Shown here: positions 3,232-6,310 of the stretch, in pieces
Numbering within the stretch: position 1 is the stretch's first letter
Layout: each line of letters begins with the position of its first letter
IMG/VR virus record: IMGVR_UViG_2690316285_000013
Length of the DNA: 6,310 nt
Direction: 5' to 3' (one strand)
From: a virus
Taxonomy: Duplodnaviria; Heunggongvirae; Uroviricota; Caudoviricetes
Notes under the pieces: model-generated
Told to the model about the DNA's origin: nothing
Seen by the model: only the letters and a program-made list of their open reading frames with translations
Database searches by the model: none
Made by a program: the position numbers and the translations under genes

Positions 3232-3615
3232 TTAATTAGAGTTATTAACAACGATATCCATCTCTAACCGGATATCTAATGCCATTAACATCCCTTCAAT
3301 TATGCCCTCAGCCTTCTGTAACCTTTTCCCGATATAACCATCAGAGCAGCAATGCTTACCTGCCAGTGACATGAATGTCATACCGACTACATAATAATCT
3401 ACTAATAAATCGTGCAAATCGCTGTTGTTCTTTTTCAGACGGGCCATGCACCCGCAAATAATCATCGCGTCATCGTCACAACATTGCGGGCGAGATTTTA
3501 CTTTTGAAGTAATTAATCCCTTAAAACCGGCGGCAATGGACGACCAGGTCACATCTTCATGATTATTAGCCGCCCACGCTCCCCAACGCTCAAGAACCAT
3601 CTGAATATCACGCAT
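3232..3615 (-). CDS. quuD: Lambdoid late-gene antiterminator Q (127 aa)
   Basis: The translation ([31 protein letters not shown]...[18 protein letters not shown]...) matches the DLP12/phage-82-type Q family as I recall it. ATG at 3615 with GGAG 8 nt upstream. The ORF-track start at 3630 uses TTG with no ribosome-binding site and is rejected. Confidence 0.8.
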
Positions 3616-3700
3616 CAACTTACTCCACAAAAATCAGACCAGAACGCCAATTACAAGCAAAAATCAACAAAACAGTATTAGTTGATTGTTATCTCTGACT

Positions 3701-3841
3701 TCATACTCCTGCTCCTGTCAGGGTTTTGGCGTAATTCTTCAGTATTCGGTAATCGGTCAAAACAGAACCGGGGAAACGATATAAGCGCAGATGCCCCCAG
3801 CGGTGGCGAAGAAGTTCTGCCATATAAAACTCAAACATCAT
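3701..3841 (-). CDS. ylcG: Small 46-aa protein, YlcG-like, translationally coupled to rusA (ATGA overlap)
   Basis: Minus-strand [49 protein letters not shown], which I translated by hand. Its start ATG (3841-3839) overlaps the rusA stop (3840-3838). The size and position between rusA and Q match ylcG of DLP12, but identity is not verified. It is not in the supplied ORF track. Confidence 0.4.
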
Positions 3842-4200
3842 TCATTCCCCATTTCGGTGATGGTCAGTTCCAGCCTCCCACCTTTGGTAACAGGCATCTT
3901 CACAACGCGGTAATCAACGACCTGAGCATCATCCAGCCAGAAACCTGCTTTGGTGAGTGCGTCAAAAGCGGCTTTTTGCAGATTATCCAGGTCACGGCGA
4001 CGGCGATCCGGCATGTGGCACTCAATACGGATTTTCACTGGCATAGCCAGGCCGATATCCAGCATTGCGTTTTTAATGATTCGGGTGACGTTATCGCGGT
4101 ATGCCTGCCCTTCTGCGCTGATGTGTGTGCGCCCGCGATTATGGCGGTAATAGCGGTTATTGCTCGGAGGCCAGGGTAATGTGATGCTGTAGGTATTCAC
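3838..4200 (-). CDS. rusA: RusA Holliday-junction resolvase (120 aa)
   Basis: [23 protein letters not shown]... and the acidic catalytic region [18 protein letters not shown]...WLDDAQV match RusA. The start codon is GTG at 4200-4198, overlapping the ybcO stop. Confidence 0.85.
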
Positions 4201-4487
4201 GCCTTAATAACCCCCTCTTTCAGCCAGATAACCTGCGTTCTCGCCATACCTTCCAGCGCGCATTCTTTTGCATACTCAGCATCGACAAAATATGTGCGGC
4301 GGTCGATTTCGTCGTGACAGGCAGAACATGCAATGGTGGCAATCAGGTCTGGCGGTTTGATACCGGTACCGCACAATCCAGCCAGCCGGATATGTGCCAG
4401 TACTGACGTTTCAGGATTGCCATTACATACGCCAGGGATTCTTACCTGGCATTCCCGACCACGCGCTGCTTTTCTCAAATCAGCCAT
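4197..4487 (-). CDS. ybcO: YbcO-like Cys-rich protein (DUF1364; putative prophage nuclease), 96 aa
   Basis: ATG at 4487 preceded by AGGAGG (plus-strand TCCTCC at 4491-4496). The protein [23 protein letters not shown]...CSACHDEID is Cys-rich. The ORF-track start at 4526 is a 13-codon upstream extension and is rejected. The start overlaps the ninE stop by 8 nt. Confidence 0.7.
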
Positions 4488-4650
4488 GATTCCTCCTTGC
4501 TGCCAGTCGCAACCATTTTTTATCAACCAGGCTAGCGGTATATCCGAGCAGTGTTGGTATTTCGGATGGCTTCAGCTCAGGCTTACGCTTACGACGATTT
4601 GATACTCTGTAGATGTGCCCGTTCATGACACGAATAAGCGGTGTAGCCAT
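4480..4650 (-). CDS. ninE: NinE-like small protein (56 aa)
   Basis: Hand-translated minus-strand [59 protein letters not shown]. Its ATG (4650-4648) overlaps the ninB stop (TAATG), and its position between ninB and ybcO matches lambdoid nin regions. It is not in the supplied ORF track. Confidence 0.6.
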   Translation of the reverse strand: MATPLIRVMNGHIYRVSNRRKRKPELKPSEIPTLLGYTASLVDKKWLRLAARRNHG

Positions 4651-5105
4651 TACGCCTCCTGCTTATCGCGCAGCTGCTGGTATTCACAGCTCTGCGGAAT
4701 TGTCAGGTGGCAGCCGATATTCATCGCCCAGGCTTCGACTTTGCACAGGAAGATGTACATCTCGCCGGTTTCCAGCTCTGACGTATGGCGGAGGGATTGG
4801 ACGGTGGTGACCTCGCCGGACACGACATCTACACGGTCTTTGCTTTCGTAGCCGAGATAGGTGTGCTTCATCGCGTCTTTGACCCACTCAGGCGTAGCGA
4901 AGGTCTTGCCGCGGGCGATGAGATATTCGCTGATCTCCGTGTACCACATGTGGCTGAGCGCGTTCTGCGACAGGCTGCGCTTCTCGCGCCACGGCTTAAC
5001 CTGCAGGCGTAAGCATTGCCCGGCATCCAGCAATGGCTGAATCTGCTGGCCGATGGCCGCGAAGTTACCGCGATGGAGTTTGATGCCGTCTACTGGCAGA
5101 GTCAT
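4650..5105 (-). CDS. ninB: NinB/Orf-family recombination mediator (151 aa; YbcN-like)
   Basis: ATG at 5105 with GGGAGG upstream. Length and motifs (RSLSQNALSHMWYTEISEYL) are consistent with the lambda NinB family. It is the first long gene of the minus-strand operon. Confidence 0.8.
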   Translation of the reverse strand: MTLPVDGIKLHRGNFAAIGQQIQPLLDAGQCLRLQVKPWREKRSLSQNALSHMWYTEISEYLIARGKTFATPEWVKDAMKHTYLGYESKDRVDVVSGEVTTVQSLRHTSELETGEMYIFLCKVEAWAMNIGCHLTIPQSCEYQQLRDKQEA

Positions 5106-5197
5106 ACGGCCTCCCTAACGGAAACCGCAGAATGCAGAAAATCGCAGGTGCATTTCTGCATCTGTGACAAGGTGATGAGTTCAGATTGTGGTCGCAT
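5102..5197 (-). CDS. Small 31-aa ORF, translationally coupled to ninB (ATGA overlap); possibly ylcH-like
   Basis: Hand-translated MRPQSELITLSQMQKCTCDFLHSAVSVREAV. It has an AAGGGGA ribosome-binding site 6 nt upstream, and its stop overlaps the ninB ATG. It is very short, so this is a low-confidence call. Confidence 0.3.
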   Translation of the reverse strand: MRPQSELITLSQMQKCTCDFLHSAVSVREAV

Positions 5198-5216
5198 TTA
5201 AGTCCCCTTAAATGCG
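5132..5216. promoter_or_regulatory. Two inverted repeats upstream of ninB (ATGCAGAAA-12 bp-TTTCTGCAT at 5132-5161; CGCATTTAA-GTCCCC-TTAAATGCG at 5193-5216)
   Basis: Perfect 9-bp arms seen directly. The second repeat encloses the ribosome-binding site of the small ORF. Candidate roles are operator, RNA structure or an early-operon terminator of the tR2 type, with no clean U-tract. Confidence 0.3.
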
Positions 5217-5369
5217 CAGAAGTCACCGGAGTTGTTCAGGCTCCGATGAGAGGATTATGGCGGATTGATTACGATAAATCAAAACTATCTTGAAGCCAAA
5301 ACAGTGATCTTCGCTTTAAAAACCTTGTATACTTTCACCTAATCACAGCCAGAACTATGGATCTAACCA

Positions 5370-5747
5370 ATGACCAACAAAGAAAACAAAGATAAATATA
5401 TTAACAAGTTCAAGAAAGAGCTTTCAAAATATATACAACCAACTGCTGGAGTGGACATTCAATTATTTAACTCTAAGGATGGTGGTGGTGTAATTAAAGC
5501 CACTTTGAATAGAAGTGGAAAAAGAAAATCATCTATTGCTGGTAATTTTACTAAATTAGGTGAGGCAATTACCTCGAGTGGGCAGAGGGTTTTTGGTGGT
5601 GATCTATCAAATGTGAATTTTTACGGAACAAATACGATTTTTGATGGAGATACAATATTTTTAATTAAATCACCTGATTCAGAGGAGTGGTCATCACAAA
5701 AAGCTTCCAAAGACGTAGAGGGCATCGTATTTGGAGGGAAAAAATGA
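5370..5747 (+). CDS. Hypothetical hydrophilic protein, 125 aa, Lys- and Gly-rich, no signal peptide or transmembrane segment; first gene of an AT-rich two-gene cassette
   Basis: ORF from ATG 5370 to TGA 5745-5747, with an in-frame stop 2 codons upstream, so it is not a fragment of a longer frame. The ribosome-binding site is weak (GGA about 9 nt upstream). Base composition is much more AT-rich than the adjacent nin genes. I recognise no family. Confidence 0.55.
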   Translation: MTNKENKDKYINKFKKELSKYIQPTAGVDIQLFNSKDGGGVIKATLNRSGKRKSSIAGNFTKLGEAITSSGQRVFGGDLSNVNFYGTNTIFDGDTIFLIKSPDSEEWSSQKASKDVEGIVFGGKK

Positions 5748-6172
5748 TTAACATTACTACTAAGGATGGCACTCAAGTCAGTGGTGAAGTAAGAGATCTA
5801 GTAATTCTTCTTGAAACTGATGGAAAAACGGTGTCTGATTATTTGCAGCCAATCCCTCCCAAAAAAGATACACACTGGAGCATGATTTTCATTCCGGTAG
5901 CAATTTATATACTACTTAATCTTGTATACATTATTGCTCACCCATTATTTCCTGAAAAATATCTAAAAACATCAACATCTATATTTCTATTCATTTCCTT
6001 CATATTAAGTGCAATAGTAGCATATTTTGTTTTCCATAAGCATAAATCTGCCACTCTATCCATATGCAGCTTAGTGTTCTTAGTGTTAATTGTAGGTGCT
6101 AACGTAGGGTTTATCAGTTACAGCGACCTAACACAAAAAGCGACGCAAAAATTAGATAGTTTGTCTAAATAA
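5744..6172 (+). CDS. Hypothetical small integral membrane protein, 142 aa: about 45-aa hydrophilic N-terminal domain followed by three predicted transmembrane helices and a charged C-terminal tail
   Basis: ATG at 5744 overlaps the upstream stop (ATGA), with a strong GGAGGG ribosome-binding site 5 nt upstream. Hydrophobic stretches: WSMIFIPVAIYILLNLVYIIAHPLF, TSIFLFISFILSAIVAYFVF, LSICSLVFLVLIVGANVGFISY. The ORF-track start at 5687 is a non-ATG extension inside the upstream gene and is rejected. Confidence 0.6.
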   Translation: MINITTKDGTQVSGEVRDLVILLETDGKTVSDYLQPIPPKKDTHWSMIFIPVAIYILLNLVYIIAHPLFPEKYLKTSTSIFLFISFILSAIVAYFVFHKHKSATLSICSLVFLVLIVGANVGFISYSDLTQKATQKLDSLSK

Positions 6173-6279
6173 TTATGTTGCCATGCGAAGTATGCATGGC
6201 TGCATGTCTGCCTTCCATTTAAAATGGGCTAAGACCTATAACCCTAAATATTATTCTTTATTATCTTCTTTACCACTTC

Positions 6280-6310
6280 GGTGATGCTGCCAACTTACTG
6301 ATTTAGTGTA
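6280..6310 (+). mobile_element. IS1 left terminus (first 31 bp including the terminal inverted repeat); the element continues right of the window
   Basis: GGTGATGCTGCCAACTTACTGATTTAGTGTA matches the IS1 left end as I recall it. It is in the same orientation as the IS1 end at 1-31. Confidence 0.7.

Follow-up and report, generated by a model that had tools for sequence, protein, structure and literature searches.

We analysed a stretch of 6,310 nucleotides (nt) from a tailed virus (Caudoviricetes; IMG/VR record IMGVR_UViG_2690316285_000013), to which we refer as the window. Judging by its open reading frames (ORFs) and the annotation of its relatives the window covers part of a lambdoid prophage that resembles DLP12. 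The subject of this study is a cassette of two overlapping genes, here named A and B, that lies within this prophage and that a preliminary description, made from the letters alone, had put forward as a candidate for an undescribed system. The cassette has a length of ∼800 bp and comprises the following features:

5286-5369, + strand: leader with the -10-like hexamer TATACT at 5328-5333, recognised in an alignment of four diverged enterobacterial copies
5370-5747, + strand: gene A, encoding a soluble basic protein of 125 amino acids (aa) with an isoelectric point (pI) of 9.5
5733-5738, + strand: GGAGGG ribosome-binding site for gene B, read from the sequence; it lies within the 3' end of gene A, 5 nt upstream of the ATG of gene B
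5744-6172, + strand: gene B, encoding an inner-membrane protein of 142 aa with three transmembrane (TM) helices
6174-6206: conserved stem-loop directly 3' of the stop codon of gene B (dG -16.6 kcal/mol, z -2.9)

Gene A (5370-5747, 125 aa) starts with an ATG, and its last bases overlap the start of gene B (5744-6172, 142 aa) by 4 bp in the form ATGA. The ORF listing also offers a GTG start for gene B at 5687, which would extend the protein to 161 aa. We regard the ATG at 5744 as the conserved start because the homologues begin with MINITTKDG, RefSeq calls a protein of 142 aa and the 4-bp overlap recurs across phyla. At the base composition of the cassette ∼7.4% of the codons would be stops, and the chance of encountering an open frame is then ∼6e-5 for 125 codons and ∼2e-5 for 142 codons. 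The GC content is 0.341 for gene A, 0.336 for gene B and 0.347 for the whole interval 5286-6250, compared to 0.501 for the nin genes at 3232-5105. For the pairwise dN/dS ratios (nonsynonymous to synonymous substitution rates) we used copies with nucleotide identities of 86-88%, 69-74% and 68-70%. The ratios ranged from 0.07 to 0.11 for gene A and from 0.07 to 0.19 for gene B, with dS near or at saturation for the more distant pairs. Long invariant stretches are visible in both protein alignments. Both genes are under strong purifying selection, and as they are conserved and show low dN/dS ratios we rejected the possibility that either of them is a spurious ORF. The preliminary description had read the two frames as coding-like and coupled, with reference to the ATGA overlap and the GGAGGG site, and the sequence, the chance estimate and the dN/dS ratios all agree with this. 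Its further remarks, namely that the cassette is AT-rich relative to its prophage neighbours (GC ∼0.34 compared to 0.50) and that it combines a 125-aa protein lacking any hydrophobic segment with a 142-aa protein of three TM helices, were confirmed as well, the latter by Kyte-Doolittle profiles and, for protein B, by the helices of the AlphaFold2 model.

Protein A has neither a signal peptide nor a hydrophobic segment and is thus expected to be cytoplasmic. It matches phrog_18061 at exact length, a family listed with unknown function in PHROGs. An exhaustive HMMER search with a profile of the enterobacterial A proteins against 1.84 billion representative proteins returned relatives in 111 clusters (50% identity), nearly all of them 120-135 aa long. 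The family shares the motif F-x-G-T-N ... I-x-L-I-K-D ... W ... A-x-x-D-V, and in the alignment its core consists of Y10, G39, F84-x-G86-T87-N, an invariant K100 within L-I-K-D, W107 and D115. The enterobacterial copies have a pI of 9.5-9.7. The AlphaFold2 model of A reached a pLDDT of 58.5 and a pTM of 0.61 and displays the topology a-b-b-a-b-b-a with a disordered middle; both this model and that of protein B were computed from shallow alignments and are of low confidence. One relative differs in architecture: P0104 (447 aa) carries a full-length A domain at residues 7-119 (E 2.7e-6), followed by an HNH endonuclease domain (PF01844, 48.1 bits, E 1.3e-12) and a C-terminal region of unknown type. 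It is a single ORF on two metagenomic contigs of 1.67 kb from different runs (L065/L066, 246-1589). Since A usually pairs with a membrane protein and is sometimes fused to a nuclease, there are hints that it may correspond to the sensing or regulatory part of those conflict systems in which effectors are exchanged. As a separate observation, a phage-like contig (L069, 258-1895) has a 545-aa ORF directly upstream of an N-terminally extended A homologue, and by eye this ORF, for which no Pfam match is recorded, shows a motif resembling GHKL/histidine-kinase ATPases (…DNGCGM…).

Protein B matches phrog_16940 at exact length, again with unknown function in PHROGs. Kyte-Doolittle analysis places its hydrophobic segments at residues 47-65, 79-97 and 106-124, and the AlphaFold2 model (pLDDT 67.7) shows a short b-hairpin and a helix followed by three long helices at 44-68, 71-100 and 103-141. 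The protein begins with a soluble acidic N-terminal domain of ∼38 aa, which leads into the three TM helices; the second of these is followed by a basic loop (HKHK, or RFK in the remote relatives), and a short amphipathic tail forms the end. The N-terminal domain has a pI of 4.2-4.5 in the enterobacterial copies and of 4.2-6.1 overall. As the loop after TM2 is basic and basic residues also precede TM1, the positive-inside rule would put the N-terminal domain in the cytoplasm and the tail outside.

Outside the enterobacteria we located the pair by exact look-up of individual proteins and by scanning one genome per species. About 30 remote loci have enough downstream sequence, and in these the gene next downstream of A encodes a small B-type membrane protein, usually with the 4-bp overlap. 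The loci span at least ten phyla. They include Nitrospira, Neptuniibacter, Nitrosomonas, Salinisphaerales, Syntrophaceae and other Deltaproteobacteria, Acidobacteriota, Synechococcus and Alphaproteobacteria, as well as Thermodesulfobacteriota, Myxococcales, Saganbacteria, Thiohalobacter, Bacteroidota (Mariniflexile, Bacteroides, Flavobacterium) and Gemmatimonadota. The typical remote B starts with ∼38 acidic residues of the consensus MK-G--EG-pEEi--l--nGl-l-dY---P and continues with three hydrophobic helices, an R-F-K loop after TM2 and a short amphipathic tail; the partners at L068 and L072 are variants that diverge at the N-terminus and have two hydrophobic segments. A profile-profile comparison with hhalign identifies the B proteins of the enterobacteria and of the remote loci as homologues (probability 97.7%, E 1.4e-12, 111 columns), and across 29 loci the pairwise identities of A and B correlate with r = 0.93 (Mantel 0/2000). 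An all-against-all BLASTP comparison covered 118 ORFs that flank the pair at 22 loci, and none of these genes recurred at a second locus. A third conserved component was considered and dismissed, as no neighbour recurs. The homology of the B proteins, the correlation of the identities and the lack of a shared flanking gene together establish that A and B are co-inherited and self-contained and that the system has exactly two genes. In one alphaproteobacterial metagenome-assembled genome (L049, ∼6384-6760) the B frame is intact and continues in frame after the stop of A, with no ATG, GTG or TTG at the expected start; this arrangement is possibly an assembly error, a case of readthrough or a decaying copy.

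Several of the remote pairs reside on mobile elements or next to genes of mobile or defence type. One copy belongs to a metagenomic prophage with integrase, lysozyme, holin, HNH and terminase genes (L024), one to the phage-like contig with Phage_rep_O (L069), one to a plasmid-like contig with MobC/NikA and a relaxase (L067), and one is flanked by two transposase genes (L059). Another copy shares an island with genes for BrnA, Gp49/helix-turn-helix (HTH) and a Ymh protein (L029). An Xre-MbcA/ParS antitoxin is encoded near the pair in L021, a DUF4062 protein adjoins it in L057, and in L043 it lies two genes upstream of the PADLOC candidate defence gene PDC-M49A. In an uncultured Bacteroides (L060) the pair sits inside a Type III restriction-modification operon, exactly between its mod gene (3966-5963) and its res gene (6872-9916), on the same strand and separated from both by short spacers. 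The combination of rarity and very broad phylogenetic spread is a pattern typical of horizontally mobile conflict genes. The best explanation of these results is that our cassette is the enterobacterial branch of an ancient, patchy and horizontally mobile two-protein module.

Within E. coli the cassette (≥ 99% identity) is present in 46 of the 5426 complete genomes (0.85%), while 2118 genomes share only the short flank adjoining ybcN. Among the carriers are the uropathogenic strains 536 and F11, the enterotoxigenic strains ETEC1731 and ETEC1747 and the strains A0 34/86 and M-17 from probiotic products; beyond E. coli we encountered it in Shigella sonnei, Enterobacter and Klebsiella. The exact A and B proteins each occur on at least 1000 contigs, for many of which the source is Shigella sonnei, E. 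coli or Enterobacter. Every entry bears the label hypothetical, as do the RefSeq entries WP_000182282.1 and WP_000608370.1. Diverged copies occupy the same slot in Klebsiella/Enterobacter-type prophages, with protein identities for A/B of 76%/66% and 67%/66%. Their host prophages differ in the replication genes (O/P, DnaB-type or DnaC-type) and in the nin region (NinB or DUF1367), and the cassette is antisense in every case. The slot is equivalent to the position of ren in lambda, between P and ninB. In L038 (5665-7348 and 9850-10971) this P-ninB gap also holds a colicin-like pore-former, a colicin-immunity-like gene and a DndB-like gene, which suggests that the gap is a general cargo hotspot. 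The patchy presence at a shared slot agrees with the earlier proposal that the two genes are accessory cargo of a lambdoid prophage.

The cassette also seems to carry signals of its own. The element GTATAMT (as TATACT, TATGAT or TATAAT) is kept ∼36 nt upstream of the ATG of gene A in the four diverged enterobacterial copies, and in the Klebsiella-type copies it takes the form TGnTATAGT, an extended -10. Behind gene B, three diverged copies have a hairpin at the same position (dG -22.7 to -27.5, z -6.1 to -6.7), and the outer arms of the hairpin vary in sequence among the copies while the pairing is retained. As no U-tract follows the hairpin on the + strand, it is likely to act either as a terminator, possibly in both directions, or as a 3' stabiliser. 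An Rfam scan of the entire window returned no RNA family. Prophages with and without the insert at this one position (46 with the cassette compared to 2118 flank matches) and a base composition unlike that of the surrounding phage genes (0.347 compared to 0.501) are both features of a moron. Given the -10-like element, the conserved hairpin, the deviant low GC content and the antisense orientation, the cassette looks like a moron of lambdoid prophages by its anatomy.

Both protein families are unannotated in every library that we searched. Neither A nor B has a match in NCBIfam or PADLOC; A has none in Pfam either, and B gave only sub-threshold Pfam matches that stem from its TM composition. 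The 79 relatives of A returned nothing in Pfam and four single chance-level matches in PADLOC, and the 23 relatives of B searched in Pfam (E ≤ 0.01) gave only noise of TM composition, for example 7TMR-DISM below the cut-off. In PADLOC-DB v2 (5027 models) no model matches A or B at E ≤ 1. Profile searches against the PDB sequences remained at chance level (E ≥ 0.01), and a profile search of genome contigs with the enterobacterial-only profile returned nothing, as did tblastn of the remote A relative P0140 against 50,697 phage records. In the literature searched we found no paper with the accessions, UniRef IDs or PHROG numbers, and the DefensePredictor supplements do not contain these accessions. 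What we found on lambdoid hotspots and defence holds nothing specific to the pair, which may be among the prophage systems of Brenes & Laub 2025. The view of the preliminary description that neither protein can be assigned to a known family thus stands on the Pfam, NCBIfam, PADLOC and PDB negatives and the unannotated PHROGs families, and its proposal of an undescribed system has gained strength from the conservation of the pair across many phyla.

We tentatively favour the interpretation that the pair is a new two-component conflict system, with A as a cytoplasmic sensor or regulator and B as a membrane effector; we regard this as quite possible, though short of probable. Circumstantial support comes from the moron-like anatomy, the inheritance of A and B as a unit, the contexts of mobile and defence type, the A-HNH fusion and a predicted topology that brings the acidic domain of B into the compartment of A. 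A more specific version, which we put forward with greater reserve, is an anti-phage abortive-infection system found in many phyla. Here the ∼120-aa domain of A would serve as the sensor and be combined with interchangeable effectors (the three-helix membrane protein or occasionally an HNH nuclease), and the prophage copy would be a moron expressed in the lysogen that excludes competing phages. In the favoured interpretation A, in the cytoplasm, would bind or control the acidic N-terminal domain of B, and B would serve as the effector in the inner membrane. Such a logic would be that of lambda RexA/RexB and of further defence systems whose effectors are small TM proteins, realised here by unrelated proteins. 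Upon a trigger such as an infecting phage B might compromise the membrane, leading to aborted infection or cell arrest, and the antisense prophage copy, being expressed in the lysogen, could act against superinfecting phages. The interaction of A with B, the membrane damage by B and the anti-phage role are all inferred.

A number of observations weigh against this interpretation. In the libraries scanned neither A nor B shows homology to a known defence, toxin or immunity family. Searches with tblastn found no copy of A or B in the 50,697 phage records and no copy of A or P0140 in 72,556 plasmids. Fold searches with the two models (pLDDT 58.5 and 67.7, both of low confidence) gave generic matches only, and the fusion of A with HNH is limited to one cluster on 1.67-kb contigs. 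Expression in the lysogen would follow from the antisense orientation and is only predicted, since the leader has no convincing promoter: we recognised no convincing -35 element and the consensus promoter scan calls no site there. Other copies of the pair are located among housekeeping genes (valyl-tRNA synthetase, a CLC channel, EgtD, a transporter). The survey of homologue neighbourhoods that had been proposed earlier did encounter mobile and defence-type contexts, whereas a statistical enrichment for defence was not established. With six neighbours per locus some defence matches are expected by chance, and the contexts are therefore only suggestive support for a conflict system. Degenerate copies do not discriminate between the readings either. 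Four of them (L007, L015, L051 and L056) have an intact A and have lost B to a frameshift or a deletion, two (L002 and L054) have an intact B and a broken A, and there is no clear signal of B toxicity.

We considered several other explanations. The pair could be an addiction or toxin-antitoxin (TA) module, in which B is a membrane-damaging toxin and A the antitoxin that is translated first, so that loss of the module would kill or slow the cell and stabilise the carrier. Gene order, 4-bp coupling and small sizes are those of many TA operons; the distribution is patchy and mobile, copies lie among TA genes (L029, L021), one is on the mobilisable plasmid-like contig, and B was lost more often than A in the degenerate copies (4 compared to 2). 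On the other hand A has no recognisable DNA-binding domain and neither protein matches a TA family. The two copies in which A is broken and B intact are also at odds with a toxic B, though polarity could silence B there, and the A-HNH fusion, which joins A to an effector in one polypeptide, fits a sensor better than an antitoxin. We consider a TA module unlikely. A function outside of conflict, for example a lysogenic-conversion or fitness factor that modulates a host transporter, envelope stress or signalling, appears to us similarly doubtful. It would agree with the several remote copies among housekeeping genes, with the library scans, which found no toxin or defence domain, and with the strong sequence conservation. 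It is harder to reconcile with the very sparse occurrence (46 of 5426 complete E. coli genomes), the lack of a conserved neighbour, the recurrence on mobile elements and inside a restriction-modification operon, and the HNH fusion, which fits a housekeeping role poorly.

Proteins such as Sie, Imm and HK97 gp15 block the DNA entry of incoming phages, and superinfection exclusion at the envelope would give this task to B, with A as an accessory factor. A prophage moron with a small inner-membrane protein, encoded antisense as expected for expression in a lysogen, is what one would look for in this case. However, the pair also occurs outside prophages in many phyla, the cytoplasmic partner is strictly co-conserved and in one relative it is fused to an intracellular nuclease, and the PHROGs search matched no family annotated for exclusion. 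We judge envelope exclusion to be improbable. The preliminary description had also mentioned an orphan Rhs/CdiA toxin tip (A) with its membrane immunity protein (B), or immunity to a pore-forming bacteriocin. In general terms the gene order, with a small soluble protein first and a small polytopic protein of the membrane second, is compatible with this, and a colicin-like gene pair does occur at the same hotspot in L038, but as separate genes. Against the toxin tip, A has its own ATG and leader and contains no pretoxin motif or toxin domain, and upstream of it we found ybcN and its promoter region on the other strand and no remnant of rhs or cdiA. Against colicin immunity, B has no match to PF03857 even at E ≤ 1 and its 23 relatives have none at E ≤ 0.01. 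Moreover, the ∼30 remote pairs have no constant companion: no neighbour recurs, and those that were tested include no delivery gene. Neither the toxin tip, given an A without toxin or pretoxin domain and a locus without rhs/cdiA remnant, nor colicin immunity, given a B without PF03857 match, held up, and we regard this explanation as hardly credible.

By the membership tests applied the pair belongs to no known system. Its general kind is familiar, both as a prophage moron and as a module of a cytoplasmic and a small membrane protein; the protein families themselves are unannotated. Among the closest known systems is RexA/RexB of lambda. RexA has 279 aa, RexB has 144 aa and four TM helices, and both are encoded in the immunity region and co-transcribed with cI. 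Like A and B they are the products of two adjacent genes of a lambdoid prophage, a cytoplasmic protein followed by a polytopic inner-membrane protein of ∼140 aa, and the logic of a sensor and a membrane effector that we propose for A and B would be shared as well. In contrast to RexAB, A measures 125 aa compared to 279 aa for RexA, B has three TM helices instead of four, and the cassette is located antisense in the P-ninB gap rather than beside cI in the immunity region. No RexA or RexB family appeared when A, B and the 79 A relatives were scanned against Pfam and PADLOC and the 23 B relatives against Pfam. With the morons (Hendrix; HK97 gp15; the lambda ren slot) the cassette shares the character of an optional insert between conserved phage genes that has putative signals of its own and a deviant composition, but it consists of two coupled genes, opposes the operon and is conserved far outside phages.

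The type V pair GhoS/GhoT resembles the cassette in being a compact mobile operon with a small soluble protein first and a small membrane protein second. GhoT is a peptide of 57 aa, whereas B has 142 aa with three TM helices and a conserved soluble N-terminal domain, and there is no homology. Type II TA systems differ in that neither A nor B contains a TA, HTH or ribbon-helix-helix domain of Pfam or NCBIfam. CBASS, Pycsar, retrons and Thoeris type II are comparable insofar as a conserved sensor-type A has either a small TM protein as its partner or, in the case of P0104, an HNH nuclease. Unlike these systems A and B comprise no cyclase, reverse transcriptase, TIR domain or signalling enzyme; they are two small proteins and have no PADLOC match. 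If the pair is a defence or toxin module, the known set of bacterial conflict proteins would gain two unannotated families, one of them with a new sensor-type domain. At ∼800 bp it would also be unusually compact for a module that functions in, or is at any rate maintained by, hosts ranging from Enterobacteriaceae to cyanobacteria and Bacteroidota. In lambdoid prophages the P-ninB gap would then count as a site for accessory or defence genes on a par with the hotspots of P2 and P4, and the cassette could alter phage susceptibility in clinically relevant lineages. Both genes are very short and one version of the cassette is at home in E. coli, a model host, so that the hypothesis is directly testable.

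The surroundings of the cassette are those expected for a lambdoid prophage, and we list them together with the boundaries:

+ strand: porin gene of the nmpC/ompC type
3232-3630, - strand: quuD-like Q gene
3838-4200, - strand: rusA
4197-4526, - strand: ybcO
4480-4650, - strand: ninE
4650-5105, - strand: ybcN/ninB-like gene
5214-5284, - strand: left boundary, outside the cassette; homologue of the putative promoter and regulator-binding site of phage 82 upstream of orf33/orf151 (ybcN)
6251-6280, - strand: right boundary, outside the cassette; final 30 nt of replication gene P with the stop codon TAA at 6253-6251
6280-6310: terminal inverted repeat of IS1 (GGTGATGCTGCCAACTTACTGATTTAGTGTA), a tail that is repeated in E. 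coli genomes

The homology to phage 82, HK639 and lambda-like phages ends at position 5284 of the window, and this sets the left edge of the cassette at about 5285. The stretch 5214-5284 is common to ∼2100 E. coli genomes, and a copy with 72% identity lies at 1144-1196 next to a ybcM-like ORF. The coordinates for the end of P were transferred from the annotation of E. coli A7 and the extent of the prophage match. On the transcribed strand the order in the E. coli A7 prophage is cI-like repressor, cro-like gene, YdaT, O, P, the cassette in opposite orientation, ybcN, ninE, ybcO, rusA, ylcG and quuD. The cassette is thereby placed ∼3 kb from the repressor genes and antisense to pR and the early-right operon. 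A pair of an ImmA/IrrE metallopeptidase gene and a DUF4411 gene adjoins the repressor in the same prophage (L001, 13508-15156) and is an accessory module of possible defence type.

The tail at 6280-6310 had 56,484 matches in E. coli genomes with a median of 9 per genome, and we take it to be the end of an IS1 element. In the window this IS1 truncates replication gene P and spares its final 30 nt. Intact relatives have a complete P gene beside the cassette and no IS1, and in E. coli CV839-06 (L002, 7331-8028) a separate IS1A copy is located within gene A while gene B is intact. As relatives lack the IS1 and another copy is inserted into gene A of a different strain, the IS1 beside the cassette is incidental and unrelated to its arrival. 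A reading of the cassette as cargo borne by IS1 was discarded, as relatives carry the cassette with no IS1. The suggestion that the abutting IS1 end is a sign of horizontal acquisition accordingly fails: relatives have the P and ybcN flanks with no IS1, and elsewhere an IS1 is found inside gene A. The cassette had been described as lying between the nin operon and the IS1 end, of which the nin side is correct, whereas there is no direct contact with IS1, as the final 30 nt of P intervene (6251-6280).

The left part of the window shows a further peculiarity. The promoter and 5' part of the nmpC/ompC-like porin gene are duplicated (132-774 and 1671-2313), and the two copies of 643 nt are 100% identical. 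A stretch of 365 Ns (775-1139) interrupts the first one at its end, and an AraC-type, ybcM-like ORF (1227-1607, - strand) lies between the two porin copies. This duplication looks like a scaffold gap or an assembly duplication rather than biology.

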